Of a DNA stretch of 64,000 nt, positions 5,237-59,600 are shown in pieces. A program made the position numbers and the translations under genes. Position 1 is the stretch's first letter. Each line of letters starts with the position of its first letter. The notes under the pieces were generated by a model that was not told the origin of the DNA, did not search any database, and saw nothing but the letters and a program-made list of their open reading frames with translations. Origin of the DNA: Naegleria gruberi (Eukaryota); NCBI GenBank assembly GCA_000004985.1, contig GG738930.1, one strand, 5' to 3'.

Positions 5237-7523
5237 GATGTTGTGGTTGGGGACTTGGCCTTTTCTACTTCTGGTTTTGGTTGTTCAACGACAGGGGTTG
5301 GCTTGCTTGATTCAGCAACTGGGCTTTTCAACAATATCATCAAAAGAAACAGAATCCAACAGATCCATACTATCCTTAGACATGAGTTCTTCCAACATCT
5401 TATCAGAATCAGATGAAGCTTGAGGCTTTGGTTCTTCCTTCTTGGTTTCTTGTTGTTTAGAAGCTTCTGGTTTAACTTCCTTCTTAGTGAGAAGAGGCTT
5501 TGGCATGAATGTTAATGGTCTATTAGGATACAAGGTCTTGTATTGTTGATGTCTTTGTGTAGCAAAAGAAGCAATAACAGAACTTCCTTGAGTTCTATAG
5601 AACATTTGTACATTGGATGGAAGGCTATTGAACATGGAATCCAAAAGGAGAGGTAACAATACAGATGATGAGCCACTAGTACAATGAGTTTCGAATAATT
5701 CTACAACTTCACCAAGAGCAAGAGTGGTGAATCTATTAAGAGCTGAAGCAAATGGAGATGGCACAGTTCCATCAATTGTGCCATTACTGATAGAGTGATA
5801 TTGGCTTGGTTCTTCAATGATTAGCTTGAAGAATAAGGTAACATAATTTCTGACAAGTTGAGTGAGCAAATCAATAACATCAGATTCACCAGCTCTGGAA
5901 GCAATTTCGAGTTGCAAGTCATGATTCTTATCCATGTAAGTTTCAAAATCGGTCATGATTTCTTCAACCTTTTCTTGAATATTTTCAGAAGAGGTATCAC
6001 CCTTCAAAACTTCTGAAATAACAAAATCTCTCATTCTTCCCTTTGTAGATTCCAAAGGAGCCCAATTTCCAGAAATAATTCCTAAAAGATCTGTAATTTG
6101 CAATCCATCAGTAGCAACAGAAATTAATCTATCAAAAATTGATCTTTCAGACTCGTTTGATTCAGTCAAGTTAACTCCCAAAGATGTCATTGCTCTCTCC
6201 ATAAAACTATTCAATGAAAATTGTTGAGCACTTGGTTGAGTGGTTGTTGGTGCTGTTGAAGTTTGTTGTTGAGTAGTGGTAGCAGAACTAGTTTGACTAG
6301 GTTGAGATGGTGTTTGTTGGGATGGTTGTTGTGCTGTTCTGTTAACAGTGGTGGAGGATGTTGTAATGAGAATAGGTTGTGGTTGTTCAATGGTTTGAGG
6401 TCTTGGTCCTAATGGTGAATTGTGAATAATATTGTGCAATCTATCCAATTGATTTGGTAATTGATCCAATTCATTGGCATTAACATGCAAATTCAAGTTA
6501 ACACCTGTAATACTTGGTTCGGAATGAGTAGTAGTACCTTGATTTCCACTATTTGATGTTGCAGTGGTATTACGTGTATTTACGATGACACCCAAATCTC
6601 TGTGTAATTGTTGGAGTGTTGGCAATACTTCATTTCTGGCAAGATTAGCAGCAAGACGATTTGGTGTAGATTCACTCAAACTATTAACAACAGTCTCCAA
6701 TGATCTGACAATATTTTGTCTTTGTTGTTCATTGTTGAGAAGGTTAATAATTGAACGTGCTCCATTAATGAGAGATCTTGTTTGATTATTATTATTGTTG
6801 GTATTATTATTTGCTTGTTGTTGTTGTTGTTGTTGCTGTCTTTGTGCTGTTGGTGGATTGTGAGAGTGTGAATGAGGGTGTGAATGTCCATGATTGTTAT
6901 TATTATTGGCATTAGCTCCTGGTTGTAAAATTCCACCTAAAACACTGTTCAAGATTGAAGAAATATCAATACCACCTCTTTGATTGTTATTGCTATTTGG
7001 TGATTGTGAGTCTACAATACCAGTGATTACCATTCCAGGACCCAAAGCACGGAAGGTTTGAGCATGTGGATGAGCTCCAGCATTTGTTGATGATGTTGTT
7101 CCAGTAGCTCCAGTGGTGTTTGTTGTAGTGGCAGAAGATGATGATGAAGAACCACTACTGGCTTGAGCCTCTGGAGGTGGCATATTTACAAGATGAATAA
7201 CATGGTCATTAGATATTTCTAATTTTCAATAATATAATTGTTAGACTCTCGGAATAATGATTTAAATATCCTACATACTGTAATCAGAGAGTTTTGTACC
7301 GTTTTTCAAAACCTTTCCTTGATAGATGAGCCTTTGAAGATGAGGAGCAGTGTTACTCTTCTCAGCAAGTAATTTTCTAAATTCTTCAACGTCAATCTAT
7401 TATATTGTTAATAAATCAATGAATAAATACTTCCTTTGACTTTCAAATACTTACTTCCGGATCCACTTGTAATTCAATTTGTTGGCCATTCATAGCCTTT
7501 ACCTTCACGTTGATTGTTGTCAT
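5237..7523 (-). CDS. large ubiquitin-like (UBL) domain protein, Q/N/S/T/P-rich (BAG6/Scythe-like or ubiquilin-like), at least 3 exons, 3' end lost in gap
   Basis: Exon 1 is 7523..7455 (MTTINVKVKAMNGQQIELQVDPE), with donor GTAAGT. Exon 2 is 7396..7279 (IDVEEFRKLLAEKSNTAPHLQRLIYQGKVLKNGTKLSDY, phase 1), with donor GTATGT. Exon 3 is 7218..5312 and is in frame with the 623-aa ORF (KISNDHVIHLVNMPPPEAQ...). An N-terminal ubiquitin fold (RLIYQGK) is seen directly. In-frame TGA at 5314-5312, but a second frame continues with similar K/E/P-rich composition into the gap, implying a frameshift or missed feature. The BAG6 family assignment is tentative. Confidence 0.6.
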
Positions 7524-23050: not shown

Positions 23051-26000
23051 TTATTTATTTGAGGGCACCATCTTTTTCTTCTTATTGACATTATTTGGAG
23101 GTTCTTGCTTTCGTTTTACAATAGTGTTTACCTTCTTACTGTTTACTTTCACCTCTTCCTTCCTTTCATCAAATTTAATTCTCTCAAAGTATTTCACCAA
23201 TAACAAATAATTTTCATGCCCTACTAGAACAGGTAAATTTGACAGATGGATGAAATTAAATTGTGTATCTTTTTCTAAAGATATTAATCCTTGTTGAACA
23301 AGTTCTGTATTACTATTTGGAAAATTGTTTGTTGTTTTTTCAGTGTTTAGTTTATCCAGTTCAACATTAAAGTGTGCAAAAATTTTACAAAATCTACAAT
23401 TCTCAAAAAAATTCTGGAGTTTCGGCTTGAAAGTTTTCCACCATACTGTAGTGGCCTTTGTAAAGTTGTTGATATAAAAAAATTTGCGATCCAATAATGA
23501 TTTTCTTTTAAGCACTGACTTTGAGTAAGCTTCTTGTGAACAGTTGTGAAGCTTGCTGCTGGTTAGATACAGTGTGTTATTGTTGAGTAAGATCAAATCA
23601 GGATGACACAAGTTGGTTGGGAAATAAATCAATCCATCCACAATTTGTCTAAAGTATTCTCCCTGGGTTTTATCGCTTAATTTACTGATACAATACCAAT
23701 ACAAAAAGTCACCACGTTGTGTGAAATCGGGTTCATCAACACCAGTACATGGCTTAGTATATTTGCCAATTATAGAATTCAATACATCCAATGCTTCTGT
23801 AGCCCAAGTACTTTTAGAGTAATGGGTGTAAAACTCTAATGCATCCATCTGACATGTTGCTCGGAAAAGTGTGGCACCTTTAACTTTTAGAAAAGGTACA
23901 TCTTGAATTGGCTTACTATTGTAGTGCTGTAGTATTAGAGCAAATATTGTTTTCCAATATTTAGCATCTTGTAAATCTTCACAGGAAAGAAGGAATCTCA
24001 ATACTTTCATTGGTGTAGTACAATCTTCATAAGTTTGGGGAAATTTCTTCATCATAATATTTGTGCAAACTTGTTTAGTTATTGTATCTGAACAATCAAA
24101 GAAATAGTCTCCATAAATTCCCTTTGGTGTGGCAAGTCCAGATCCAACAAGAGTTGCTGCCATACTCTCTCTCCCATGAATAAGTGAGGTTGAGAAAATA
24201 TGGGTGTTCGTAGCTCTGATAAACATTTCCTGTAATATATTTAGAGAAATCTTTTTGTTTTTGATATGAGCCAATACAGTTTCTGTAATGCTATTGGTAA
24301 ACTCTATCCAGCAAAGTTTAAGGGGAGAGATCTTCATAGATTTGAATGGATATGCAATTAATTTTTTAAACTCTGAATATGGTTGATTTTTGAAATTGGT
24401 TGTCAATTTTTCACAGACAAGTCCAATAACTCTTCTCCTTGTTGGAAAAATTATCTTTTCATCTTCCTTATCAAACAAATTTTTCAGATAATTAGTATCG
24501 TGCATTAACCCAATCATATTCTTTGCTGTTGTTGCTGATATGGAATCTAAACCAAAAAAAGAAAATATGTTATTGGTGATATCCTGATGTTTTCCATTAT
24601 TGGACTGGACTATGTCTATCACATCAGCCGTAAAACAAGTACCACAATAAATATCACAAACTGGTGTAGATATTCTACCTCTTATTATGCTAATCTCAGA
24701 GTGTAACAGTGTAAGAATATCTCGCAAAGTGCCATTTTTGGAGAGTAAAAAAGTTTCCTTAATAGAAAACACATTTGCTTCATCAAATGCAAATATAAAA
24801 GGCTCAGTACTTGCACCCAATTTTTGAATCAGATTATTGACCAAGGAGGAAGTACAATTTCTCAATTCTTCAATATCATACTCTACCCATCTGTTCTTTA
24901 TGAGATAGTTAAATATTCTATTTGCAGCTTTGGTGTTGCCAGTATATTGAGCATATGCTAAAAACTGTTTGCATTGCTTGAATGGTTTGTGTTCAAGATC
25001 TTTCCACATATCTACACATAAATCCAAATAGATAAGTCTTGCAATCAGGTTGCAGTGCACTAATTGTCTTGCAGTTGCAAATAATTCCAATGCAGTTTGT
25101 GTATCCTCAATCCTATTGTTCAAATTCAAGGAACAATAATCTGTTCCTCGAAAATTTGTTGTGTCATCTCTACAGCAAGTGAACAGGACCCCAAGATTAA
25201 CACCTAATCTTCTTGATATCTTACCATATATATCCAAAAGTTAAAATTGTACTTACCAATGCTGTTTTCCCAGTGCCAGAAGGTGCAATCAGGGAAACAG
25301 TATCACCCCTGATTATGTGGTTATTCAATTCTATACGCTCACTATCATCTTGTAAATCCACTTGAAAATTTGGAATGAAAGGAAGTATCTCTTTTACAAG
25401 TGTACTCTTTTGGATCATCAATAAGGGAACCTTTACATCTTTAAGGGACAAAGGGGAGGGATTTTGTTCCATGACAATCTGATTCTTAAAGGTTACCTTT
25501 TCTTTATCAATAGTTTCGAGTGGACAATCTTGTTTCACTTGTTCAATGTTTAGGTAATCCTTTTTGCGTTTTCCAGAATAAAAGAGGGTAAATGCTGTGT
25601 TGAAAAGATTATTCACATCTTCTTTCCTATCCATGCTTTCACAAGATTGTCCTTGTATTAGTTTCTCTAATGTTTGGTACCATGATAATTTGGCATCGTC
25701 AGTCAAGCCTTTCATTTGTTGTTTCAGCTTTTCCATTATCGACAATTCTGAATACGATTTAATGACATTGACTTCATCTCTAATGTTATTGAATGCCCAA
25801 TTAGCAACAGTACGGCAAGTAATAGCAAACTCAAGGCTTATATTCCCAGCATTCTTTGATTCTAAAAATCTGTTAATCATAGCCATAGTAACCGTATCCA
25901 CAGTGCTCTTTTCATCTATTAAGACACTTACAAGAGAATTACCATTGAAATCATGTTCAAGGAATGGTTGCAAAATAGTTTCCGACAAGCCAGTGTTAGC

Positions 26001-26063
26001 GGAAAGTTTGGTGAAAAGTTGGTGCGAGGTCCATGTTTTTACTTCTTCAACCGAATAACTCAT
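23051..26063 (-). CDS. large P-loop NTPase (STAND-like) with SAM-like N-terminal domain; two ORF segments joined by a 37-nt GTAAGT..AG intron or a frameshift
   Basis: Real ATG at 26063 (MSYSVEEVKTWTSHQLFTKLSANTGLSETILQPFLEHDFNGNSLVSVL). Walker A IAPSGTGKTAL sits at the end of the upstream ORF (26063..25257). The downstream ORF (25219..23051) continues ISRRLGVNLGVLFTCCRDD... into a long helical region. A candidate intron spans 25256..25220. Confidence 0.55.
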
Positions 26064-26110: not shown

Positions 26111-29035
26111 TTAAATGATGTTGCAAATCATTAAGCTGATCACCATAACAAGCATCAAATTGCTGAAAACAATGATATTAGAATTACTTGACTTATCTTG
26201 AATAAGTACTTGATTTGCCAAATTGTTAACACCAACAGCTGTTGTTGTAATTGAATTTGAAGAACTGCAATTACTCTCAAATGCACCAATATCATTCGTT
26301 AAACCATTATATGAAATACCGTCAATTTTCACACCCTTATCAATCAGGGTAATTCCATTTGTTACATTACAACGAAGTGTAAAATCACTGGCAAGAGCAT
26401 TATTGAAATAGTAAGCCAAATTATTCTTACTAGTTTCGTACACATTCTTCTTGACATCCATCACACTTGGCCAATCAATATATTGCCAATACTTCACAAC
26501 ACTAATATCAGTCATGACATAATTATGATCAATATTCCAATAAGGTGTCAATGAATAACTCAAAGTTGGTTTCTGAATTGGTGAATTGACAAACACATTA
26601 TTTCTCATGTCAACTGTTCTTGGATAATATGAATTAAGTGATTTTTTAACTCTCAAATCCAATGCCAACTCATCCAGAACTGCTCTATTCAACCCAATCA
26701 CTTCATTATACAGATTTACATCTGTCAAAACTTGTGGGGAAGAAACAGATCCATTCACACTACTAATTAATCCTCTCTTTGTAATTGCTAACCAAAATGG
26801 ATAAGCTACACCATGAGTAGTATTCAAAGATGGAACAATATCATTCTTGTGTAAATAGAGTAATGAAGTATTTGTAATGACTCGATTAATATGAGCTAGA
26901 ACTTCCAATTTTAGTGAATCTGGCATTTGAGATTCAGCACTATATGTTTGAACTGTCTTGACCAAAGTTTGATTCTTATTCCAAATTAAAATGTTTGCTT
27001 TTTGGTTGGTCAAATATTTAATATCCTGAAATAGATTTGTCCATTTAATTGTTGCCTTGTCTCCAATGTAATGGAATCATCCACTAAAAGATATCTGTAC
27101 CAAACATTGTAGANNNNNNNNNNNNNNNNNNNNNNNNNNNNNNNNNNNNNNNNNNNNNNNNNNCAATACTCCATAACTTTCAAATCTGGTAATATTTAAA
27201 CTACTAAAAATGTAATATTCACTTCTAATTATGTTAATTCCTGTTTGTAACATGGAAACTTGAATATTATTTGGTAAACTTGCAGCTGCTACATATAATT
27301 GTGAATTTACAACTGCATATTGACCAACTTTTGATATCAATCCTGGGTGGTTTGCCATTGAATATTTATCATTTACCAAAAATGCTACATTTTTTGCAAC
27401 ACCAATTATGTTAGTTACATTATTGTAATATAAAATCTTTCTAGAAATTGTAATAGTACCTGCAACAGTGTAATGGAATATGGTTGCATTGACCCAATAA
27501 TTATCACTCACTTTGGAACCATCGGCTTTATATCTGAAAGTTTCGTCTAGTTTCATATAATTCAACAATGCATTAGGTGGTGTGAAATTTGTATTATTCA
27601 CATTGATTGTCAAGTAATTATCAACTGTAAAGTAATCATCTGAATTAGCTGGAAGTGGTCTCATTGCCAATATGAAATTATTATTATTTACATTGACATT
27701 GACAGAATCTCTTTGTAATGGAGCAGTATAAATCTTGAATGGCAATGTAGTACTAACAGATTGAACTGTGTTCATATTAATTGGATAAGAACCATCCAAT
27801 CTAACTTGATTATTAACTCCTTTTATGGAAATAGGATGTCCAGGAATGGAAGAATATTGAATTTTAAGAGTTTCTCTATAAGTTCCTGGATAAATATATA
27901 AAGTATCATCTGGGAACAACATGTATTGAGCTCTTGAAATAGTTTCCCATGCTGATGCATATGATTTTCCAGTATTCAAATCTGTTCCATTCTTTTGGTT
28001 GACCCAATAAATTTGAGGAGCAATCGAATAAGTATGAAGAACCTTTCCTTTCCAGACACTAACTTGTAAAATCTTGAATCTGGAACCAGATTGAACATAC
28101 TTATCAAAGAAACCAATCTTACCATCATTCGAATAAAATACTTTCATTGCATTAGTATCTGAATCAACTGCATTGACCAAATAATCAGCATTTGCCACAC
28201 TCAATTGACCAATCGATATTTGAATAGCATTATTAACTTTCTTAACATAAATCTTGTGATTAGTTGTAACAACTGGATTACCATATGCACCAACTAATAA
28301 TGTTGAGCTGTGGATGACAGTTCTCTGACCATTCAATACACGTGTAATGGTTAATGGACCTGGGTTTTGTAATTGAATTTCATAATAGTTATTAGAATCA
28401 ATATAATTGAATATGAATCCTCTTCCAGGTGATGAATAATATGAGTTGGCAATAATTTGAAAAGTGACATCATTGGAAGTGACATTAATTTTGGAAATTG
28501 TAATGGTATTAGCAGAGTTAATTGTTAAAGAATTGGAAGAAATTGAGTGTGAACCTTGGGTACTAATCCAACCACCTCCCATTCCATTACTTGTTGTGAA
28601 ATTATCTTGTTGTAGTAATAAATTGGTGGATGTTAATTTTTCAGCACTTTCAACATTGATTGTAATGTAATCAGTCTGAGTAATAGTTTTGGATGATTGT
28701 TGATTGTAATAGGTTGAATTTCTCTGAATGGTGAATGTTTTGCCTGCTTGACCTGCACCTGGATTGAAATTGAATACTTTGTTGGTGGAATCGTATACCA
28801 TACCACTTGAAAGTGGACCATAGGAGTATGTGATTGGAGTTTTAGGTTGACTATGTAATTGGACTTCTGTTGACGAAATACTCAAAAAACCATACTCTTT
28901 TACTCTTGCACCGCCGATTGGAACAACATAATAATCACCTTGGTCGACGCCATTTGGTAAGTTAGCACAAAAAGCAAACTGGTTGACCAACAATAAAAAG
29001 AAAATTAGGATTCCCCTCTGAAATGAAAGGCTCAT
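26111..29035 (-). CDS. large secreted glycoprotein (about 950 aa) with ConA/LamG-like and beta-helix-like regions and a C-terminal hydrophobic GPI-type signal; interrupted by a 50-N gap
   Basis: Real ATG at 29035. Signal peptide MSLSFQRGILIFFLLLVNQFAFCANLP. The 652-aa ORF runs to gap 27114-27163, and the 300-aa ORF after it has the same flavour. It ends ...SNSNIIVFSNLMLVMVISLMICNII. Many NxS/T sites. Confidence 0.55.
27114..27163. other. assembly gap, 50 N
   Basis: Run of n inside the secreted-protein gene. Confidence 0.99.
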
Positions 29036-44539: not shown

Positions 44540-45772
44540 ATGGAACAAATTCTTAAGGAAGAACACTACTTGAGGAATGAAGAAAACCTCAATGTATCAT
44601 CATCCGATAGCAAATGTTCTTCATCAAATAAGAGAGGCCACGAAAGTATTGAATCTTCAGAAGAACACAATCATGAACAATCCACCTTACAACCTCCTTC
44701 TAAATCGCTCAAATTAAATGTTGAACCTCATCAGCAACAAGACGATCTCGAAATACTTCTCAACCGATTGAAAGAAATTGAAGAGGAAAAGTGCAAGATA
44801 ATTCAAGAATTCAAATTACAAGAAGCCTTATTAGAGAAGGAACGTTTGGAAATTCTCTCCATGATAACTCTTGGTAATGAAGAATTTGATACAAAGAAGC
44901 CCGTTCACCTCAATGTTGGTGGATACATACTGACTATTTGTATGGGTGTATTTGTCAATTCTGTGAGGGAACCAAATAATGTAATTGATAAGATGTTTAA
45001 GGGAATAATTCCACTTCATGAAACTCCTTCATTAGTATTCGAGGAGAAGGTTTTCTTTATAGATTGTGATGTTGCTATTTTCAAGATTATTATCGAGTGG
45101 ATGAAAACAGGAGAATGTGAAAAGCTTTCGGAAAAGGAACTGAAATTAGTATTGAGAGCTTGTGAAGAGTTTGGATTTGAGAATTTTAGGAATCACTTGA
45201 TACAAGAAAAACAAGCAACTCTTCCACCAACAGCATCTGACACTATAACTAATTCTAATATTTTGGATCCTAACATATTAAGGGAACTCTTTGAAAAACA
45301 TGTAAAGTCAAAGAATGATGGTTTATTATATAGAGGAACAAGAGATGGTTTTAAGGCAACCGACTTTCACAAACATTGTGATCAACAAGGGAAGACTGTG
45401 ACGATTGTTCAATCAAGAAATGGTCATATATTTGGTGGATTTACATCAAATAATTGGGAATCTTCCAAAGGTTTCAGAACAGATCCCTCTGCATTCATAT
45501 TCAAGATTGATTCTGCATCCATTTCACGATTTGATATCAAATCTGACTCGTATAGGAATGCAATTTCTTGTGATATTGAAAGTCTTCCTTCTTTTGGTTT
45601 GGATTTCAAACTCTCCTCATCATGCAATGAAAATTCCAACTCATACTCCAACTTTGGGCACACCTATCAATTACCAACTGGATTCACTTATGAAAGTGAG
45701 CAGGCAAGAAAGTATTTAGCTGGTAGTTGCAAATTCCAAGTAGTGGAAATTGAAGTATTTAAAGCACTCTAA
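44540..45772 (+). CDS. BTB/POZ + TLDc domain protein
   Basis: First ATG at 44540 (MEQILKEEHYL...). BTB: PVHLNVGGYILTICMGVFVNS...VFFIDCDVAIFKIIIEWMKTGECE. TLDc: LLYRGTRDGFKATDFHKHCDQQGKTVTIVQSRNGHIFGGFTSNNWE...YLAGSCKFQVVEIEVFKAL. Confidence 0.7.
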   Translation: MEQILKEEHYLRNEENLNVSSSDSKCSSSNKRGHESIESSEEHNHEQSTLQPPSKSLKLNVEPHQQQDDLEILLNRLKEIEEEKCKIIQEFKLQEALLEKERLEILSMITLGNEEFDTKKPVHLNVGGYILTICMGVFVNSVREPNNVIDKMFKGIIPLHETPSLVFEEKVFFIDCDVAIFKIIIEWMKTGECEKLSEKELKLVLRACEEFGFENFRNHLIQEKQATLPPTASDTITNSNILDPNILRELFEKHVKSKNDGLLYRGTRDGFKATDFHKHCDQQGKTVTIVQSRNGHIFGGFTSNNWESSKGFRTDPSAFIFKIDSASISRFDIKSDSYRNAISCDIESLPSFGLDFKLSSSCNENSNSYSNFGHTYQLPTGFTYESEQARKYLAGSCKFQVVEIEVFKAL

Positions 45773-46173: not shown

Positions 46174-47784
46174 ATGACCATAGTTACTAATTCATACAAT
46201 TTTAATAATTGTCATAATAGTAGCACCAATAATGCAAGAAAAATGTTGATGAGAGAAAAATTTATTAAATTGGCGCTTCACCTGCAAGATTTGAATGAAA
46301 TTAAGAATGCATTTGTGGAAAAGTATGAAGAAATGAAGAGCCTTGTAGAAACAGTTTTGGAGTGTGGATACGAGCATGATGATGAGGATGAAACAGTTTC
46401 GAATTTTGTAAATGACGAAGAAGAAGAAAAATTGATCAAGGAAGAGTTTGTGAATTTTCTTGATCTGAATGAATTTTTACTGCCCTCACAACAGGAAGTT
46501 GTTGAGCAAGAATCTCATACTGGATTGTTCGATTCACAGTCAATTCCAAAGAGTCTTTCGTCTATGAGTTTATTCAGATGTGCTTCGAGTGAGAGTTTGC
46601 TAACTTCACAGCAATTGTTAAATGATTCTGTAATGATGCAACAAATTGCTTCACCAGAACATGAATCGACAAGTTCAGGAAGTGCATTACTACCATTAAA
46701 TGTGCTTTCAGTTGTTGGTCAACCTTCTGATTTGATTTCACAGAATCTTGTCAAGTCAACCAATAATGTGAAACGGCACAAGCGTGCCAATAAATCACAT
46801 AAGAGAAAGAAATTAATAGAGAAGGAAGATTCTTCAAAAAAGATCAAGATGGAAGAATCAATTGTTCAAACATCCATCGACAATTTTGCAACATTGCTAA
46901 CGAAAGAAAATCCAATCACATGTCAGTCGCCAAAACAAACAGTTTATGGCGAATTTAATTGGATTAATAGTTTTGGATCATTTGGATCTGCAGATGGTCA
47001 ATTTGATGGCCCAGTTGATATTAAATATCTCAGTAGAAGAGACTATCTCCTTGTGGCCTGTTACAATAATAAGAATATTCAAATTTTTGATGCTAAAACA
47101 CTTGAATACAAGTATCAAATTTCCACACAGAGCGAAATTAGAGGAATGGCACTCGATCCCACCAATGACAATTCAATCCTAATCAGTTGTGATGACAGCA
47201 TTGTATCCAGATATACCATTATGGAATCATGGCATGTGGAAATGTATGGCTCTAAAGGATGTAAATCGAATCAATTCAATGGGCCTACAGGAATGGTTGT
47301 CGATGAAGAGGGCAGAATATTCGTATGTGATTGTCTCAATTCTCGAATAGTTGTCCTCTCAAAGGAAGGTCAATTTTTGTACAATTTTGGAGAGAAGGGA
47401 ACTAAGAAAGGTCAATTTCTCATGCCATGGTCTATAACAATTGATTCGTTTGGTAATTTACTGATTACTGATAGTGGACGTCATGTAATTCAAGTTTATT
47501 CACCCAATGGAGAGCATTTGAATGAAATTGGAAAAAAGGGATCTTCCAAATTCGAATTCAACACACCGAGAGCCATCACAATTGATCAAATCACTGGGAA
47601 TGTTCTCATATGTGATGAAGGAAACAATCGTATACAAATATTCAATTCTACTCTGACAGAACATGTGAAAATCATTGAGGATCGACTCCATGCTCCAACT
47701 GGACTCACTTTAGATCCAACAAGAGCCCTCCTCTATGTTTCTGAATGGGATCTGGAACATAATTTCATACAAATTTTCAAATAA
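46174..47784 (+). CDS. NHL-repeat beta-propeller protein with acidic, S-rich N-terminal region
   Basis: First ATG at 46174 (MTIVTNSYNF...). At least 5 NHL repeats, e.g. FNGPTGMVVDEEGRIFVCDCLNSRIVVLS and FNTPRAITIDQITGNVLICDEGNNRIQIFN. Confidence 0.65.
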   Translation: MTIVTNSYNFNNCHNSSTNNARKMLMREKFIKLALHLQDLNEIKNAFVEKYEEMKSLVETVLECGYEHDDEDETVSNFVNDEEEEKLIKEEFVNFLDLNEFLLPSQQEVVEQESHTGLFDSQSIPKSLSSMSLFRCASSESLLTSQQLLNDSVMMQQIASPEHESTSSGSALLPLNVLSVVGQPSDLISQNLVKSTNNVKRHKRANKSHKRKKLIEKEDSSKKIKMEESIVQTSIDNFATLLTKENPITCQSPKQTVYGEFNWINSFGSFGSADGQFDGPVDIKYLSRRDYLLVACYNNKNIQIFDAKTLEYKYQISTQSEIRGMALDPTNDNSILISCDDSIVSRYTIMESWHVEMYGSKGCKSNQFNGPTGMVVDEEGRIFVCDCLNSRIVVLSKEGQFLYNFGEKGTKKGQFLMPWSITIDSFGNLLITDSGRHVIQVYSPNGEHLNEIGKKGSSKFEFNTPRAITIDQITGNVLICDEGNNRIQIFNSTLTEHVKIIEDRLHAPTGLTLDPTRALLYVSEWDLEHNFIQIFK

Positions 47785-48219
47785 ACTAAAGACATTAACA
47801 AGAATTCCGCCTCTAGAAAATTAAGAAACTTCCTTATATAGGTCAATGGGCTACCCTTGCTCTTGGAGTTTTAAATTTCTCTCAATTTCAAACATTTCCA
47901 CTGTTCAAAATATTTATGAATATCACTCTCAACCAATTCTTAGAACTCGTTACAATTTAACAAAAATACTTGTTGTTTTTTGTTCTTCAATTTTGTCGAA
48001 TATTTTTGTTGGCGCCCACAAAAAAATTTCAAAAACAAATCAAAAAAAACAACGCAATTTCTTACCTCACGTTTTTGAGAGTAAAAACAATTGATTTACA
48101 TCAACAACAAGCTTGTGAGAAGTGGGTGAATTCACGGACAAGATTCAATCATACCTCTCTATTAATATTATTCAGCAATATCTTAGCATCAAGCTATTTT
48201 TAATTTAAAACAAAAAACA

Positions 48220-49230
48220 ATGCCGTTGTTCTTTCATGAAGGCTTGCTCAAGAAGAGTCGTTCGAGAGCTTCTACGAAGAGGGAGAGAAACACAAACTCC
48301 ACCTCCGAAGGATCATCACTGAAGAGAAAATATACAGATTATGAGGAAGAAGAATTTTGTGATTGTACTGATGATTTTGCTTGGAATTTGCCGATTGCTT
48401 CACCAATTTCAAGTATGGAAGATGTTTGTGATTCTTTTGATCAAAAAGTTAAGAGAATCAAACCTTCATCAAATTTAATTAAATCGGAATTTAGTTTTGG
48501 ACAAACAAATCAAACCATTGTAAATAATTATATTAACATGAACTATAATACAAACAATTCAGAGTTGGACATTTTAAACACCAATTATGAAAGAGTTGAA
48601 AAGATTGAGGAAGATGAATATGCAGAATATTATAGAGTGACAAGAAAATACGACCACAAATTTTGTAAATTAATATTGTTGAAAAACAATTCAAGCGGAG
48701 ACGATATATACAAACTATTGAGTTTGAGAAATTCGAATATAGTAGAAATCACACATTGTGGTCTCATTGGTAAGCGACCATTCCTTGAAACGAAATGGTA
48801 CAGAGATGGTACATTAGACCAACTCCTCAAGAGAGGAGAATTTATTTCCGAGAATAGCTTAACGAGAATGGCCAGCAGTCTTTTAGATTCATTACTATTT
48901 ATTCAGGAAAATAATATTGTCTGCAGAGACTTCAGACCTTCTAACATTCTGGTCGAAAGACATGGTGCATTCGAGTATGATTTGAAATATAATTTGGAAT
49001 TTATTTGCTTTTCATCCCACTCCACTGAATCACAAAAGAGAAATATCAAATCCATTGGACAAATACTCTTCATGCTAATGACTAGAAAATCATGCATCAA
49101 TGAATCTATTACAAGAGAATATCTATTAGAGAACATTTCAGGAGTCTATTCTCCAAAGATTGTCGATCTTGTCCTTGTCCTACTCTTCTCTGATTTAACT
49201 ACTTGCGAAATCTTCCAATTCTTGAATTAA
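48220..49230 (+). CDS. protein-kinase-like domain protein, probable pseudokinase
   Basis: Real ATG at 48220. A kinase-like catalytic-loop remnant is CRDFRPSNILVERHG. There is no GxGxxG and no DFG. Confidence 0.45.
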   Translation: MPLFFHEGLLKKSRSRASTKRERNTNSTSEGSSLKRKYTDYEEEEFCDCTDDFAWNLPIASPISSMEDVCDSFDQKVKRIKPSSNLIKSEFSFGQTNQTIVNNYINMNYNTNNSELDILNTNYERVEKIEEDEYAEYYRVTRKYDHKFCKLILLKNNSSGDDIYKLLSLRNSNIVEITHCGLIGKRPFLETKWYRDGTLDQLLKRGEFISENSLTRMASSLLDSLLFIQENNIVCRDFRPSNILVERHGAFEYDLKYNLEFICFSSHSTESQKRNIKSIGQILFMLMTRKSCINESITREYLLENISGVYSPKIVDLVLVLLFSDLTTCEIFQFLN

Positions 49231-50239
49231 TTCAAATAAAACACGTCCAATCTGTTAAATAATTCAACACTTTAGTAATATTCTATTATCCTTCTTGTCT
49301 CTTAATTGGAGTGTAATTATCAAAAGGCTCATTTATCATTGAAGCATCTGTGCAGCCAAGTTGAACGGACCTGTGGCTAGTACTTTTTGAGATTATTGAT
49401 AGAATCCAAAGTTCAGCACCTGAAACACTATAAAACCAAAATTGTGCATAGAGAGCGAGTAGGGATTATCTGTTACTGGAATAGGGGTCTCAAATTTATC
49501 GTTGCTTCACTAATCTTTCAACAAGTTGCTAAATATTTCAAGATCGCCACAATTCAAGGTATTTCCCCAGTTGCAACCTTTCCTAAAATGTACTTTCATC
49601 TTGTAAGATTTCTTAGGACAAAGTTCTTTTTTGATTTAATTGTCAAGATTCTTCAATACCTTTGCGTTTCATAAACGAAAAAAGTGGAGAGACAACATGC
49701 TATAAAGTACTACTCTATTTCCAAGAACATATGCGGCTGAGAGTTAGTATGAAACAAAAAGAACAACATCGAGTCGATGATTAAGAAGAAGAAGCATATT
49801 GAATCCTATAAAACACAAAGAAAAAGCAAACATTGATCACCAACAACACTTTTTGACACGTTGATACAAAATAATTGCTCAAAGCAACAACTAACCAAAA
49901 GTTCAAAGTCTTCTAATACGGCAACTCGAGACAGAATTGGAAACCTCGTCAGCCATGAGTTTTTTAAGATCGAGTTTCCTACTGCCCATGCATGTGTCAA
50001 CAGTGTTGATTGTAAATAATAACAAGAAGAATATTTAACAGAAAAAAAAGCTTTACTCGCAATCTATACAAGCTGAGTATTAATTATGTGTGATTGAAGA
50101 TAACCACTGTCAATGAAACATGATTTGGTTTCGATTAAAATGACGCTTGAATTGCCATTTTACAAACACTCATTGGAACTATTGATACTTTCCATTACTT
50201 TCTGTCCATGAGTGAAAACGAAAGTGGTCTAAACTGGAC

Positions 50240-51775
50240 TTATTTAAAGGTACAGGTGTGGAATTGAAGACCAGTATCCTTCTTATTCTTACTAATTCCA
50301 TCTTCGATCTGAATCTTGATTCCACCATCAACAAGTTTACATTGTTGCATCTTGATTGGCTTATCGTTTGGATTTGCTTCAACTAACAAACCTTTCGAAT
50401 GTTGTTGATTAACAAAAGTGAATTGATTATGATTGTTCTTATCTTGTCTATTGGCTGGAATCTTTCCCTTCTTATTTGAACTGTTATTACTGTTGTTTGC
50501 AGAGTGTTGATTAACAACAACTTGTTGTCCAACAGTAGTAGTAGTATTATTATTATTGGACATGTAAACTTGTCCATTACTGTTATTCATCATGATTGAA
50601 TTGCCAAATGAATTGGTGGACACATTGGCTGGAGACATGGACATATTGGATGAACAAGTTGAAGTAACAGATGGTGAATTCAATCCACCATTCATATTAT
50701 TCACCATTAACATGTTATTAGCACCACAACTTTGCATCTTGGAATTTGAATAACTTTGAATGGCTTGGAAACATGAAGTTGATCTCTGATGACTACCACC
50801 CTTTCTAATACCTCTTGATTGAGAGGATGAGGATGAGGATGAATTGATGGAGCCTAAGGAAGGAGACTTTGAATGATGGTGAATGCTACGTCTCATACTT
50901 GGGGAGAGACTTTGAATGTTGGTACAATTGGCGAGCATGGAACCCAAGTAGGCTACTTGTTGGGATTGATTGTTATTGGTAATGCTTGGAGAGTTGTTGT
51001 TGATCAACATGGTATTGTTGTTATTATTATTGGTCATGATTGTAGGGGTGGAAATATTTAAAGTATTATGATTGTTTGGGTTGGTATTATTGGAAATGGC
51101 GAGTTGATTGAGTAATTCTTGAACTTGTTGTTCAATACTGGTTGTATTTACATTATTATTACATGAATTATTATTATTATTATTAATATTAATATTATTA
51201 TTTAAATTTAAATTATTATTATTATTAATAGGAGTTGTAGTGGAAGTATTATTTGGATTATTATTATTATTAATGAATTGTTGCCATAATTCAAACACTG
51301 AATTAGTATCCAAGGAGAGTCTTGGTGTACTAGGTGAATGTTGTTGTTGTTGTGTTTGATGATTATTTACATAGCTTTGACTCGTTGTATTACAAAAGGA
51401 GGTGGAAGGATACATCATCATTGTACGATCAACTGCAGCATCCTCACCACATCCAGCCAACAAGACATTACTCTTTGTATGAGGCGTAACAACAACAATA
51501 TTGTGTGCTACTGCTGATGATGATGCTGATGAGGAGGAGGCTTGTGTTGTGGAAGGTATAATAACAGTTGGTGGAGAGAGCGGATGATTCAAGGCTTCGT
51601 GACTCTCCAACTCTTCTCGCATTACAGCGCTAAAATCAAGTTCATCTTCATCGAGCATGGAATCAAAGAGACTTTCTATGGAGGAGGAATTATTGCAAGT
51701 CATCATCATGTGGTGCTGATTATTATTATTATTTGATGATGATGATGATGATTGGAAAAGATTGGAGTAGTCCAT
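50240..51775 (-). CDS. Asn/Ser-rich low-complexity (prion-like) protein, 511 aa
   Basis: Real ATG at 51775 (MDYSNLFQSSSSSSNNNNNQHH...). Long poly-N tracts encoded by att/aat runs at 51160-51240. Confidence 0.45.
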   Translation of the reverse strand: MDYSNLFQSSSSSSNNNNNQHHMMMTCNNSSSIESLFDSMLDEDELDFSAVMREELESHEALNHPLSPPTVIIPSTTQASSSSASSSAVAHNIVVVTPHTKSNVLLAGCGEDAAVDRTMMMYPSTSFCNTTSQSYVNNHQTQQQQHSPSTPRLSLDTNSVFELWQQFINNNNNPNNTSTTTPINNNNNLNLNNNININNNNNNSCNNNVNTTSIEQQVQELLNQLAISNNTNPNNHNTLNISTPTIMTNNNNNNTMLINNNSPSITNNNQSQQVAYLGSMLANCTNIQSLSPSMRRSIHHHSKSPSLGSINSSSSSSSQSRGIRKGGSHQRSTSCFQAIQSYSNSKMQSCGANNMLMVNNMNGGLNSPSVTSTCSSNMSMSPANVSTNSFGNSIMMNNSNGQVYMSNNNNTTTTVGQQVVVNQHSANNSNNSSNKKGKIPANRQDKNNHNQFTFVNQQHSKGLLVEANPNDKPIKMQQCKLVDGGIKIQIEDGISKNKKDTGLQFHTCTFK

Positions 51776-53954: not shown

Positions 53955-54569
53955 ATGAATGAAAGTGTTGGGATTAGTTTAGATTCGTTTATTGGCTCTT
54001 CACTGCTTTATTCCAAACTTTCGGTTAATTCACTTTCCCATACACAATCCAACATTCTAAATAACCATCAATTTCTCTCATTATTCCAAGAAACTCTCCA
54101 CTGCAAACAAGTTATCCGAAACTTTGTTGGTTCTGTGGATGGATTCAAATCCGAAACTCTTCATTCCAAATGCAATTATCTGAGAAACATTGTGGTGGTT
54201 ATCAGATCGAGAGTTTATCGTTCAATATTTGGAGGTTTTACAAGAGAACACTTGACAGACAAGTTTCGTATTTTCAAGACAGATTCTAATGCTTTCTTAT
54301 TTAAATTCAATGAAAGTGGAATATTGGAAAGGTTTCCCATCAAGAAAGCTAATTCGTGTGCATTGATCAGTTGGAGTGAAACTCATTTAATTGAATTTGG
54401 AAGTGATCTGGCAATAGTTGAGAATTGTAATGTGAATTTTCATTCATTTTCAAGCTTTTGGATGTTTGAAAGTCCTCCAGAAATGAATATTATGGAAGCA
54501 AATTCATATCTGGCTGGATCTTGTCGATTTCAAGTTGAGGAATTGGAAGTATTTAGTGTGGAAATTTAG
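53955..54569 (+). CDS. stand-alone TLDc-domain protein
   Basis: First ATG at 53955 (MNESVGISLDSF...). TLDc motifs TLHSKCNYLRNIVVVIRSRVYRSIFGGFT, NAFLFKFNESGILERFPI and YLAGSCRFQVEELEVFSV. Confidence 0.6.
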   Translation: MNESVGISLDSFIGSSLLYSKLSVNSLSHTQSNILNNHQFLSLFQETLHCKQVIRNFVGSVDGFKSETLHSKCNYLRNIVVVIRSRVYRSIFGGFTREHLTDKFRIFKTDSNAFLFKFNESGILERFPIKKANSCALISWSETHLIEFGSDLAIVENCNVNFHSFSSFWMFESPPEMNIMEANSYLAGSCRFQVEELEVFSVEI

Positions 54570-54782: not shown

Positions 54783-55687
54783 TTGGAATGTACTGCAGCT
54801 CAATTGGAAAAAACAGCCAATTTGTTGAGAAAATCAAATTCACCATTCGCATCGACTCGATTTGCACAATTGGCCAAAGTTAAAAAAGCATTGGCAAATG
54901 TTCGAAATGAGATTGAAATTGTCAATTCGACATGTGTTGCATTTGATGGTCCTGATTGTAATATAACAAAATTAACTAGCAGCCCCATCTTAATACAAAC
55001 ATGTAATTCTAAATGTATAGCATGTCTATCTCAAGATCAGTGCTCTCTGTGTTCTGGAAATTGGATGGGATTCAATTGTTCATTATGTAAATCAGGTTGG
55101 ATTGGAACAGATTGTAATTTAGCTGATATTGGGGATTTGGTGTCATCAACAATTCTCACAAATACCAATCATTCTGTAAGGCTACTGACTGAAATTTTGA
55201 ATAATGTTCCTACCAGCAATAAGAAATTACTTTTCAGAGCTTCAAGGGATGGTTTCACATCAAGCTCATTCCACACTTGGTGATAATAAGGGACCAACGA
55301 TTGTATTAATCAAAGCAAAAGGTGGAGCCGTATTCGGAAGTTATGCAAGGTTTTCTTGGGCTTCTTCTTGGACTAATGGATTTGCTTTGGATACATCTTC
55401 CTTCTTATTTAATTTCTTCAACCAATCAAGAAAGATTTGTCAAATTTCCTCTCATTGGTTCAGTTTCTATTAATTATAACAGTGCTTATGGACCAATTTT
55501 TGGTGGAGGTCATGATTTATTAATTGTTGATAATTCAAATCAGAACTCCAACAGTTATGCGAACTTGTGTTACAGTTATTGTAACAATGATGCAACAATG
55601 ATACCTGGTAGTATTACGGCACAATCATTTATGGCTGGATCAGCTTACTTCCAAGTTGATGATTATGAAGTGTATTCATTACAATAG
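54783..55687 (+). pseudogene. EGF-like Cys-rich + TLDc gene disrupted by two single-base frameshifts (pseudogene or sequence errors); the 5' end is also out of frame with the upstream signal-peptide-like ORF
   Basis: Three consecutive ORFs in frames 0, +1 and +2 together spell a complete TLDc. Frame A ends ...LLFRASRDGFTSSSFHTW*, where removing one G at about 55279-55280 gives FHTCDNKGPT. Frame B is ...GPTIVLIKAKGGAVFGSYARF...SSFLFNFFNQS. Frame C is ERFVKFPLIGSV...GPIFGGGHDLLIV...FMAGSAYFQVDDYEVYSLQ, where removing one A at about 55429 restores FNQSERFVKFP, matching the neighbouring paralog FNESGILERFPI. The Cys-rich N-terminus is CNITKLTSSPILIQTCNSKCIACLSQDQCSLCSGNWMGFNCSLCKSGWIGTDCN. The upstream MFSFKGGHSLMVILLSLLFIIISQHL (from 54704) is in yet another frame. 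Confidence 0.55.
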
Positions 55688-55749: not shown

Positions 55750-56283
55750 TCAATTCATTTCCAACAAGGCCAATAAATCTTCCAAATCCGATCTAATATT
55801 TGAGATTGGGGAGCGTAGAGTAGCATTGTGATCCCAATTTCTTTTTACAATTTCAAAATATTTCATTACTACTATTACAATGTTGGGAGATGTTTTTTCA
55901 TCTGGCAGCATGTACTCTGAAATCCATTTGAATATTTGATCTTCTGTTTTGAAAGGAATTATAGGTCTAAGTCCTTTAACAACCAATCCTGGAATGTTGA
56001 AAAGACTCACATTAGACCATAACCTTTCTTCCTCATTGTTGGTTTCGTACATTCTTGTCAATTTGAAACTTGATGAATAAGGTATCACTTCAAAGAATAC
56101 TTCCCACATAATAATTGCAAAGGAATAGACATCTATCATGGTTGCTGTTTGTCTCGAGGCCATATTCGATTCACTTGGTCCTTCTAAAACCTCGCTTGGA
56201 CAATAAAACAATGTACCTAAATTAGTTCTGTATTTAAATTGCAAGAGTTTTCTGTAAAAGAAGTTGTGCCAGGTAAACCACTA
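55750..56283 (-). pseudogene. orphan protein-kinase C-lobe fragment (subdomains VIII-XI), minus strand
   Basis: ...LQFKYRTNLGTLFYCPSEVLEGPSESNMASRQTATMIDVYSFAIIMWEVF... shows the (GT..Y..PE) and (DVYSFA..WE) motifs. There is no N-lobe upstream on this strand; the upstream space is occupied by a plus-strand kinase N-lobe. Confidence 0.55.
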
Positions 56284-57447
56284 ACCTTGAAGCTGCTAGT
56301 CCATAATTTTTTCGGTGATACTATTACTGATTTAAGCAAGATTAGGATTATGTATGATATTGATCAAGACATTGTTCTTTCTCTAAATTTCTCAACAGAC
56401 AGCACAATTCAAATAACACCCTACCCAGTCCAAAAGGAAATTGGAGCCTTAGAAAGGAGTTTGACACTTTATTCAGAAGACTCTCAGTATTTTTTTAATG
56501 TTTCATTCACATTTGTAAAATGCCCTCAAATGTTTACAATGGATGATGTGGTTATATCAGGTCAACCAGCAGTTGAATGTATCCCAGAACAAGTTGTACT
56601 CTCAAGAGATTTTGTAATTCTAGTTGCTGTTCCAACTTCAATTGCTGTTCTAATACTGGGAATATCTATTGGTCTGTTTTCTCTTTATGTCCTTAACTTT
56701 ATTTCGGTAAGAATGTGGAGACTGAAAAAGAAAGAAAAAGCAGAATTGGAATTGGAAATGAGAATTATTGACAAGAAAGTAATATTTCAAAATTCTGTGG
56801 TTTCTTCCCAATCTACATTGTCAGAAACTGCCAAATCAAAACAATCAAACAATAGTGATCTATCCGTTCCACTGATAGAAAAGAATGAAAAACCGTCATT
56901 TATTATTCCTATTGAAAATATTGAAATTGTTAGAAAACTTGCCGAAGGAGGACTAGGAATAGTTTATCTTGGGAAATTAGTTGGAAAAATTGACGTTGCC
57001 ATAAAACTTCTGAAATCGACCGACCAAGGAGATGAGTTTGAGCAAGAAGCTTCATTACTGAGCTCACTGAGACATGATAACATTCTGACATTATTTGGTA
57101 TTTGTGTAACATCAGAAAACAAATACATGGTTACTGAGTTTGCTGAAATGGGCTCTCTTGATAAATCCTTATACAGAGCCAGGATTGGGGAAATTACTCT
57201 TCCACTGAAGAACAAACTCTCTATATTAATAGCCACAGCTAAAGGCATTGAATATTTACACAATTTGACACCAACTGTTGTTCACCGTGATTTAGTAAGT
57301 ACTACAATCTTGTTAATTTATTGTTATTAACCAATATTAACTTCAACAGAAACCTGGAAATATCTTGCTTGATAAGAAGAGTGTTGCCAAGATTTGTGAT
57401 TTTGGCCTATCAAGAACGATTTCCAATTCCATGAACAGTGTCTTGAC
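56221..57447 (+). pseudogene. receptor-like TKL kinase fragment: ectodomain tail + TM + kinase N-lobe through DFG (exons 56221..57294 and 57350..~57447); lacks signal peptide/ATG and C-lobe
   Basis: Open frame from the stop at 56218-20. TM is ILVAVPTSIAVLILGISIGLFSLYVLNFI. Kinase motifs: LAEGGLGIVYLGKL, VAIKLLK and HRDL, then GTAAGT donor at 57295 and a 55-nt intron. Next comes KPGNILLDKKSVAKICDFGLSRT. After SVLTG the frame becomes antisense of the beta-helix ORF. Confidence 0.6.
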
Positions 57448-58787
57448 AGGGGCACTCATAAACTCTGTATTTGGAGGTTTCTTGAATTGGAAAGATGATC
57501 CAGTAGACTTTAGATTGGACAAATATCCTTCTGCTCCGAGTGATGCTGTATTCTTGTTAAAGGTACATGTTTCAGAAATGATTAGTGATTTTGGATTCTC
57601 ATCTCCCTGGTTTCTTCCAAATAATAGAGCTCCACCTTTAGATGCCTTATTGTTTAGAAATTTACATCCTGATATGAGACCAGTTTTTTCAATTCCAAGA
57701 ACAGATATTGCTCCTCCACCACCTTTAACGTAGCCAATTGAGTCATCTTTTCTTTGACTGTAACTTTCCAATAAAACTCTATTTCTTATGAAAGTAGAAT
57801 CTGAAACTTCCAATTCTTTTACATACTCTATATGAACTGCTCCTCCACTAATAGATGCATTATTTCCAATGAACGTATTGTTTGATAACTGAGCTTTTGC
57901 AATGAATAGAATGAACATTCCCCCTCCACTTTCGGCACTGTAATTATTTTCGAATATATTATTAGTTACTGAGGCCCAACAATAAGTTGTCATATCAGGT
58001 TGACAATATCCTAGGAAAAGTGCTCCACCCTTCTGTCCCCTATTTAGCTGAAAAATATTGTTATCAAGTTTGGCAGTCACATAATTATTGACATATACAC
58101 TTCCTCCATAAAGACTACCCTTATTACGAGCAAAATATGAATTGGTAATATTCACATTGGCACAATTAAACGTCAACAATGAACAAGTGTAGAAACACTC
58201 TCTAGTTATTTCACTATTCATCATTGAAAAATAGTCCACAAGCACATCTTTCACATCGATAATGCTAATTACTTGTCTATTTGATGTGCTATTAGCATTT
58301 TGTAGCAAGGCATACGCTCCTGATTGAAGATATAGCTTTGGTCTCTTTAGTGATGTACCCTTAATATTAGAATCAGTAAATTTGAATGTTTCAAAATCTC
58401 GAACAAATATCTTTCCTTCTTGATCTATAATTCCATTTGTTGCTGTTACTTGTTGTATTTTAGAGAATCTTAAAAGTGCAGCTACCTCATAATTGTGCAA
58501 TTGGGCATAATTTCCCATATTTACCTCCATATGACTGTCAGAATCCAAAAGAGAGGAATTTTCAATTACTAAATTCCCTGAAAACACGATAGCAAAATAT
58601 TCTACAGTGCTGTTGACTATTTCGAAAGTAGTAGATTTTACATCTCCTTGAATGTCATTTCTAGGATAGTACTTGAAATCAGAATCATTAAAGTATGAGT
58701 TACTGATCGTAAATGAGATGAGCTGGTCAAAATTATAATTGACACCGTATAAATTACAATACTCATAAGATATGTAGGATATATCTG
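57343..58787 (-). CDS. right-handed parallel beta-helix (pectin-lyase-fold, PbH1 repeats) protein; 5' end in gap. The true 3' end is probably near 57450, because the last ~35 codons are antisense to a kinase exon
   Basis: The frame is open from the gap edge 58787 (DISYISYEYCNLYGVNYNFDQLISFTISNSYF...) through ...NNIFENNYSAESGGGMFILFIAKAQLSNNTFIGNNASISGGAVHIEYVKELEVSDSTFIRNRV... to the stop at 57343. Confidence 0.6.
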
Positions 58788-58959
58788 NNNNNNNNNNNNN
58801 NNNNNNNNNNNNNNNNNNNNNNNNNNNNNNNNNNNNNNNNNNNNNNNNNNNNNNNNNNNNNNNNNNNNNNNNNNNNNNNNNNNNNNNNNNNNNNNNNNNN
58901 NNNNNNNNNNNNNNNNNNNNNNNNNNNNNNNNNNNNNNNNNNNNNNNNNNNNNNNNNNN
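58788..58959. other. assembly gap, 172 N
   Basis: Run of n. Confidence 0.99.
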
Positions 58960-59600
58960 CTAGCAACAACAAGAAAATCACCACCATCACGTTGTTGATT
59001 CTTTCCATTTTTTTGTGTGGGAATTGCTAGATTTTTCAACACTGTTTTTGGTCAAAACATCATGACGGAGTGAACCAACAAACCAACACAATTTGTTGCT
59101 TTGCATACTTTTTTCCTTCCGATACAACGTCAATCCCAATCGTCATCATTTTCCGTACATCAATATTTGTTACCGTAATCACAACAATTAAAAATGTTGA
59201 AGGAGATGTGAGGGTTAACCTCGTGCGAAATACTAGAATTTTGAATACTATAGTGTGATGATTTTCATACTTTCTTTTGGTGATGATGAATATCAACTAT
59301 TGTATTTTTTTAAATTGTTAAATAATAATAATATTTAAGAGTGATTAATAATTAATAATATCAAATTGAATATTAGGGATATTTCAAAATAATGAAGAAC
59401 ACACCAAGTTGGTTTTCAATACTCTAAATCTAATGGTTATTGAGTTAATTCGAATTCCTAGTAATATGTGTATGAAACTTCAGAACAGATTACAACAAAA
59501 TGGAAAGGTTACATTGAAATAACGGTTTCACTTTAAATGATTGGTTATAATCAACTTACTGGTTGGTTGATAGCACTACTTTTTAACACAACTAAAAAAA

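Follow-up and report, generated by a model that had tools for sequence, protein, structure and literature searches.

Receptor kinases whose extracellular part is built of Chlamydia-type polymorphic membrane protein (Pmp) repeats form a lineage-specific gene family in Naegleria. Its members combine Pmp repeats, an ectodomain tail with a V.PG motif and a cysteine pair, one transmembrane (TM) helix, and a TKL kinase whose activation loop carries the signature [MIVL]-T-x-N-[LIV]-G-T-L-F-Y. By exact look-up we identified family members in N. lovaniensis (C9374_000528 (XP_044552356, 1273 aa), C9374_010964, and C9374_009604) and in N. gruberi (NAEGRDRAFT_74710 (XP_002670288) and NAEGRDRAFT_65139). 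Pfam searches found Chlam_PMP repeats and a kinase domain in the homologues, which databases label only as hypothetical, uncharacterized, or generic protein kinases. Here we describe a receptor kinase locus in a 64,000-nt stretch of contig GG738930.1 of Naegleria gruberi (assembly GCA_000004985.1, strain NEG-M), hereafter the window, which has 33.5% G+C and four runs of N. Nine single-exon open reading frames of the window are identical to annotated N. gruberi proteins, among them NAEGRDRAFT_75837, _75838, and _75841, all from one 158,571-bp scaffold. The locus shares the architecture and the loop signature of the family and is 33-43% identical to its members over its kinase-bearing parts (segments B and A below). 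In the family members, all parts lie on one strand, whereas here the middle third lies on the opposite strand, and one of its joints is out of frame. The locus is thus a disrupted, unannotated member of this known family, or else a local assembly fault.

An earlier reading of the letters of this stretch (the original prediction) held that three adjacent segments make one coherent receptor kinase only if the middle one is flipped. Six-frame translation and the list of open reading frames (ORFs) gave three open segments, C, B, and A, and together with Pfam they bore out the strands and content that had been proposed. The parts of the locus, in the order of the gene, are as follows.

58960 to 59008, minus strand: probable start codon and signal peptide MERINNVMVVIFLLLL of the gene, recognized by position and hydrophobic character.
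58788 to 58959: assembly gap of 172 N inside the gene, with the signal peptide on one side and the ectodomain on the other.
57449 to 58787, minus strand: segment C, Chlamydia-Pmp-type repeat ectodomain, recognized by Pfam Chlam_PMP, motif counts, and homologue alignment.
56227 to 57448, plus strand: segment B, the inverted piece of 1222 bp (ambiguity allows 56224-57451), recognized by Pfam, tblastn, and six-frame translation.
56227 to 56610, plus strand: ectodomain tail in segment B.
56611 to 56703, plus strand: TM helix in segment B, a 31-residue hydrophobic stretch followed by RMWRLKKKEK.
Between the TM helix and the N-lobe, plus strand: juxtamembrane region in segment B.
56911 to 57294, plus strand: kinase N-lobe in segment B, with HRDL ending at 57294.
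57295 to 57349, plus strand: intron in segment B, 55 nt, GTAAGT...ACAG, phase 0, between HRDL and KPGN.
57350 to 57448, plus strand: last exon of segment B, from KPGNILL through DFGLSR to SVLT (KPGNILL...DFGLSRTISNSMNSVLT).
55750 to 56226, minus strand: segment A, the remaining activation segment (TNLGTLFYCPSEV) and the kinase C-lobe, with the stop codon at 55750-55752.

The open frame of segment C runs for 442 codons from 58785 downward on the minus strand and, as now arranged, continues into the antisense of segment B to a stop at 57343. Segment B has neither start codon nor signal peptide, and segment A begins in the middle of the activation loop. The gene had been thought to start at 58787; instead, an ATG followed by MERINNVMVVIFLLLL lies at 59008-58960, past the 172-N gap, and is probably the start of the same gene, severed from segment C by that gap. 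The gene therefore extends from 59008 to 55750 on the minus strand, and the assembly gap interrupts it as well.

We compared 27 retrieved relatives with the 64-kb window by tblastn and read out the mapping for nine intact Naegleria homologues. Seven of the nine matched all three segments, with C and A on the minus strand and B on the plus strand, and their protein coordinates rose strictly from C through B to A; the other two matched some of the segments only, with the order unchanged. None of the 27 relatives had matches elsewhere in the 64 kb. The mapping of homologue P0058 illustrates the pattern.

58254 to 57505, minus strand: P0058 residues 418-701, segment C (tblastn).
56245 to 57315, plus strand: P0058 residues 706-1059, segment B (tblastn).
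57350 to 57457, plus strand: P0058 residues 1053-1089, segment B (tblastn).
56244 to 55792, minus strand: P0058 residues 1081-1262, segment A (tblastn).

The same order was found at the protein level by blastp, with relatives including P0058, P0066, P0072, P0065, P0086, and P0154, and an exhaustive phmmer search with segment B aligned the family across the ectodomain tail, the TM helix, and the N-lobe. Because intact homologues match the segments in the order C, B, A on alternating strands, A, B, and C are shown to be pieces of one ancestral family gene, with the middle piece inverted in this sequence. The original prediction had proposed looking for intact collinear copies; these nine homologues are such copies, and their mapping bears the prediction out.

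The kinase domain leads to the same conclusion, since its two Pfam halves are exactly complementary and fuse into one match. Segment B matched PK_Tyr_Ser-Thr with 119.6 bits over profile positions 1-155 of 258. Segment A alone matched Pkinase at positions 154-207 of 263 with 20.8 bits, below the cut-off. When B and A were fused, a single kinase match covered positions 1-223 of 258 with 148.6 bits. No single polypeptide of the locus holds a complete kinase domain: positions 1-155 lie on the plus strand and positions 154 onward on the minus strand. All catalytic motifs of the protein kinase superfamily (PF00069 / PF07714) are present across the two segments, namely the glycine loop, VAIK, HRDLKPGN, DFG, an APE-like P-S-E, and DVYSF. 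The single TM helix followed by a kinase N-lobe in segment B stood as predicted. The glycine loop did not, as it reads AEGGLG (AxGxxG) rather than GxGxxG, with the first glycine replaced by alanine as in the rest of the family. Judged by its domains, the intact gene would encode a single-pass receptor Ser/Thr kinase of TKL type with a Pmp-repeat ectodomain.

The segments might instead be three independent units: a secreted Pmp-repeat protein (C), a truncated kinase-like membrane protein on the plus strand (B), and a C-lobe protein on the minus strand (A). Each piece is indeed an open frame, and C retains the ATG and signal peptide on its promoter side. However, B lacks a start codon, a signal peptide, and a C-lobe, A starts within the activation loop, and the protein kinase fold is such that half a domain does not function as a unit. 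Moreover, every long-enough homologue has its parts in one collinear chain, no family members with A, B, and C as separate genes were found, and no plus-strand C-lobe was found downstream of B by tblastn in the 64 kb. We regard this explanation as very improbable.

The intron of segment B also reflects its origin. The original prediction had argued that the polarity of this intron matches the present orientation of B, which we confirmed; in addition, the position is conserved. The phase-0 intron between HRDL and KPGN is 55 nt long here and 64 nt long at the identical codon boundary in an N. lovaniensis homologue. Since the N. lovaniensis intron lies at exactly this boundary, the intron in B belongs to the family and follows the present orientation of B, and segment B is a genuine gene piece in inverted orientation. 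The closest full-length homologue, the N. lovaniensis gene at 3001-7388 of PYSW02000010.1, has a kinase part cut by six annotated introns, each 46-159 nt long, and one of the resulting exons, of 21 nt, encodes KPGNILL; the N. gruberi locus has only one of the six introns. This difference points to intron gain or loss in the family, or to over-prediction in the annotation. The annotated model of NAEGRDRAFT_65139 (P0062, 997 aa) likewise breaks off within the activation loop, at kinase profile position 164 of 263; its early end is likely due to a missed intron, as N. lovaniensis has one at NLG/TLFY, or to a gap.

The ectodomain in segment C had been called a PbH1 beta-helix. We found no Beta_helix or PbH1 match there by Pfam scan, and Pmp-type repeats fit better: Chlam_PMP (PF02415) scored 26.3 bits against a gathering cut-off of 20.6, and the segment holds nine FxxN and six GG[AGS]x motifs, with repeats of the GGA[ILV] type. 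The beta-helical fold itself received weak support. In an AlphaFold2 model of segment C (mean predicted local distance difference test score 54), only residues 190-390 were confident; they were all-beta, with short stacked strands, and the top Foldseek matches in the PDB were all right-handed beta-helices, albeit weak ones (E >= 3e-3, template modelling score <= 0.36). The FxxN and GGA[ILV] motifs and the above-cut-off match are shared with the Chlamydia Pmp proteins, and the predicted fold of residues 190-390 resembles right-handed beta-helices; bacterial matches also carry PF13229. In Chlamydia, however, the repeats belong to an autotransporter passenger domain, whereas here they form the ectodomain of a eukaryotic single-pass kinase. 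Our literature searches found no publication joining Naegleria, polymorphic membrane proteins, and kinases, and nothing relevant on the kinome.

No near-identical protein was found for the restored 987-aa protein in a very large protein collection, where the best match was 34% identical, and the phmmer search with segment B returned nothing closer than 43% at full length. There is also no paralogue of the locus within the 64-kb window. With a best identity of 43% and no close paralogue, the locus is not a recent duplicate.

Both breakpoints had been placed inside coding sequence; alignment and tblastn confirmed this and narrowed them to a few nucleotides. In the family alignment, DFG[LI]SR of the activation loop is followed by a stretch of 11-15 residues that ends in [MIVL]-T-x, and N-[LIV]-G-T-L-F-Y comes next. 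The rebuilt loop of the locus, DFGLSRTISNSMNSVLT[T/G]NLGTLFYCPSE, fits this pattern in both sequence and length, with B contributing DFGLSRTISNSMNSVLT(G) and A contributing (T)NLGTLFYCPSE. In the tblastn mapping of P0065, exactly one residue lies between the match to B (ending at 57448) and the match to A (starting at 56223). The loop alignment and this single-residue spacing fix the B/A joint to within a 3-nt ambiguity. The lower breakpoint (x1) lies at 56224-56227 and the upper (x2) at 57448-57451, with x1 + x2 = 113675, so that the inverted segment measures 1222-1228 bp.

The two joints make different demands on the reading frame. Segments C and A share one genomic frame, and the intron takes out 55 nt; the C-to-B joint then requires x1 + x2 = 1 (mod 3), whereas the B-to-A joint requires 2 (mod 3). 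A clean re-inversion that rebuilds the kinase thus puts the C/B joint off frame by 1 nt, and a stop follows after roughly ten codons. Even when re-inverted, the locus lacks the collinear single open reading frame of the family. One added nucleotide, for example in the G-run at 57449-57452, would restore ...NTEFMSAP-SVFKLQEFSVKEVVPGKP.... The C/B linker varies in length within the family, and the linker of the locus is not shorter than that of P0058, so that a 1-nt scar or a base-calling error suffices at this joint and no large deletion is needed. A second intron absorbing the offset was also considered and rejected, as the N. lovaniensis gene is one continuous exon across the C/B linker. The N. 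lovaniensis activation-loop intron at NLG/TLFY has no counterpart at the N. gruberi locus, where the same site is uninterrupted.

We searched the junctions for elements that might have mediated an inversion. Inverted matches between the two junction windows reach at most 7 nt, so the ends of segment B lack the inverted repeats of a repeat-mediated inversion. Two other elements lie at the junctions.

56227 to 56235 and 57464 to 57472, plus strand: two copies of the 9-mer TCTGTATTT, a direct match in the present arrangement.
57420 to 57436 and 57477 to 57493: quasi-palindrome with 17-nt arms (14 of 17 matching) and a 40-nt loop, centred at 57456.

The 9-bp direct microhomology of the original prediction thus exists, at coordinates other than those first given, and is at chance level: about 8% of random pairs of junction windows of this size from the sequence share a 9-bp direct match. 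Its first copy begins at the first base of B if the breakpoint is read at 56227, and with B restored, the C/B joint would have one copy on either side, the pair making up a 9-bp inverted repeat. As a mechanism, the microhomology was rejected for its chance frequency and its orientation, which is wrong for mediating an inversion. The centre of the quasi-palindrome lies 5-8 nt from the B/C junction, and it is the only such element in 55-59 kb (window density 0.32 per kb). In the restored arrangement, its arms would turn into direct repeats a short way upstream of each breakpoint. In the absence of inverted repeats longer than 7 nt, repeat recombination, a site-specific switch, and a flip by the assembler are all left without a substrate.

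The inversion might instead be reversible and programmed, as an on/off switch of a surface receptor, or stably heterozygous and kept in the population. The locus would encode a surface protein of an expanded and variable family, one junction falls inside the quasi-palindrome, and the pieces show no decay. However, the segment ends lack the inverted repeats that site-specific or homologous switches require, flipping B back does not restore the frame, and a Pfam scan of ten other ORFs in the window revealed no recombinase or mobile element. We consider such a switch or balanced state highly unlikely. We give equally little credence to a real but polymorphic inversion, heterozygous in a polyploid NEG-M or varying among N. 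gruberi isolates, which would have arisen at a quasi-palindromic fragile site and would toggle the surface receptor kinase between intact and broken forms; if true, this would be a eukaryotic analogue of phase variation.

We favour a real and recent two-break inversion, and hold this view with moderate confidence. The ancestral form would have been a minus-strand gene running from 59008 to 55750 and encoding a signal peptide, a Pmp-repeat ectodomain, the conserved ectodomain tail, one TM helix, and a TKL-type Ser/Thr kinase. Two breaks, one in the variable linker just past the last Pmp repeat and the other in the kinase activation loop between SVLT and TNLGT, would have turned the central 1.22 kb around. 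The ends may then have been rejoined without homology, as in end joining, with 1 nt lost or gained at the linker joint. The outcome would be a non-functional gene, in which the piece with the TM helix and N-lobe has no start codon or signal peptide and the C-lobe piece is orphaned. At most, a truncated secreted ectodomain with a short nonsense tail (to the stop at 57343) could be produced from the intact promoter and signal peptide. We infer that the inversion is present in the NEG-M genome, that it arose via end joining, and that it killed the gene.

The three pieces show no sign of decay. Their 2,973 coding nucleotides contain no stop codon, whereas in simulations of neutral substitution, which did not count indels, the probability of remaining stop-free was 16% at 1% divergence and 5.6% at 1.6%. 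Given this lack of stops, the event is either very recent, with less than about 1.6% neutral divergence since, or never happened in vivo. Provided that the assembly is correct, the locus is a young unitary pseudogene, with an inversion and a 1-nt offset, intact relatives, and no decay.

A second strain gives a comparable limit. Contigs of the ENA metagenome ERZ929261 (run ERR1078381, project PRJEB11402) are 98.4% identical to the window and represent a close strain (L001 is equivalent to 46345-50690), and five of nine window genes checked have near-identical counterparts there. No protein from the receptor kinase locus of this strain was found in the collection. The event accordingly goes back no further than about the point at which NEG-M and the ENA strain diverged, or it never occurred in vivo. 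As neither of the two very large protein collections holds a near-identical protein, the reference annotation has no model at the locus and the ENA contigs lack it, which is consistent with a dead locus. In the JGI metagenomes, the protein scan was empty and a DNA pattern for the restored B/A joint had no match, so that these searches of the ENA and JGI data turned up no second assembly of the locus. Public Nanopore reads of NEG-M are deposited as BioStudies S-BSST1363 (PMC12344493).

The convergent neighbour at 54783-55687 (plus strand) is an EGF-like and TLDc gene, with its TLDc domain at 55131-55681. Two +1 frameshifts, near 55275-55282 and near 55410-55440, spread this domain across three frames, and no gene model or near-identical protein was found for the gene. 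The window has two other TLDc genes (45323-45760 and 54123-54563), and each of them keeps to one frame. The roughly 4 kb from 54.7 to 59.0 kb thus hold two adjacent broken, unannotated genes, and the cause could be real decay or poor sequence.

The main alternative to the favoured inversion is an assembly or cloning artefact, in which NEG-M has an intact collinear gene and the sequence derives from a rearranged or chimeric clone, or from a mis-join at a thin Sanger contig end. Sanger coverage is usually thin near contig ends. Several observations weigh on the side of an artefact. The inversion is known from the sequence of one draft assembly, in a scaffold with four N gaps, and a contig end and gap lie 1.3 kb from the B/C junction. 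The two frameshifts in the TLDc neighbour could equally mean poor local sequence quality, and the 1-nt frame problem falls at the run of four G (57449-57452), where it may be a base-calling error rather than a junction scar. The complete lack of decay in all three pieces is what an artefact would predict as well. In addition, the distance of 1.22 kb between the junctions is short enough that both might be covered by the two end reads of a single 2-3 kb plasmid clone.

Other observations count for a real event. There is no inverted repeat longer than 7 nt at the junctions to mislead an overlap assembler, which argues against a flip by the assembler. The junctions demand different values of x1 + x2 modulo 3, so that re-inversion is 1 nt off frame; a pure computational flip would not give this result, and imperfect restoration is typical of end joining. 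There are two reciprocal junctions, and random chimerism would not be expected to yield a reciprocal pair that agrees to within 1 nt. The broken, unannotated state of the TLDc neighbour is also consistent with a dead locus. Taken together, we regard an artefact as possible but rather doubtful.

Two further regions of the window were recorded. At 26111-29035 (minus strand), two long ORFs of 300 and 652 aa flank a 50-N gap (27114-27163); neither has a Pfam match, the 652-aa ORF begins with a signal-peptide-like N-terminus, and the two are probably one secreted-protein gene. At 23051-26063 (minus strand), two overlapping long ORFs of 728 and 280 aa have no Pfam match, and the 280-aa ORF has a GTGKT P-loop-like motif near its end.

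If real, the inversion would be a clean and datable case in which a small two-break inversion killed a Naegleria gene and left both scars legible almost to the nucleotide, and it would add an unannotated dead member to the Pmp-repeat receptor kinase family. If it is an artefact, some 4 kb of the reference scaffold (54.7-59.0 kb) are mis-built, and one or two real genes there are hidden from the annotation. In either case the consequence is local and concerns annotation and assembly quality, not a new biological principle.

The arrangement has parallels in two known systems. In the scrambled germline genes of spirotrich ciliates, whose inverted segments are joined at pointer repeats, as at this locus, an inverted segment lies between its neighbours and a short repeat occurs near both ends. 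However, the 9-mer here is direct and at chance level, and the frame is not restored on unscrambling. Naegleria is also not known to have a split between germline and somatic nuclei. The human F8 intron-22 inversion resembles the locus in that a breakpoint inside the gene separates gene parts and abolishes the product. In F8, however, long inverted repeats recombine to produce the inversion, whereas here both breakpoints are intragenic and coding and inverted repeats do not exceed 7 nt, a pattern that speaks for end joining.

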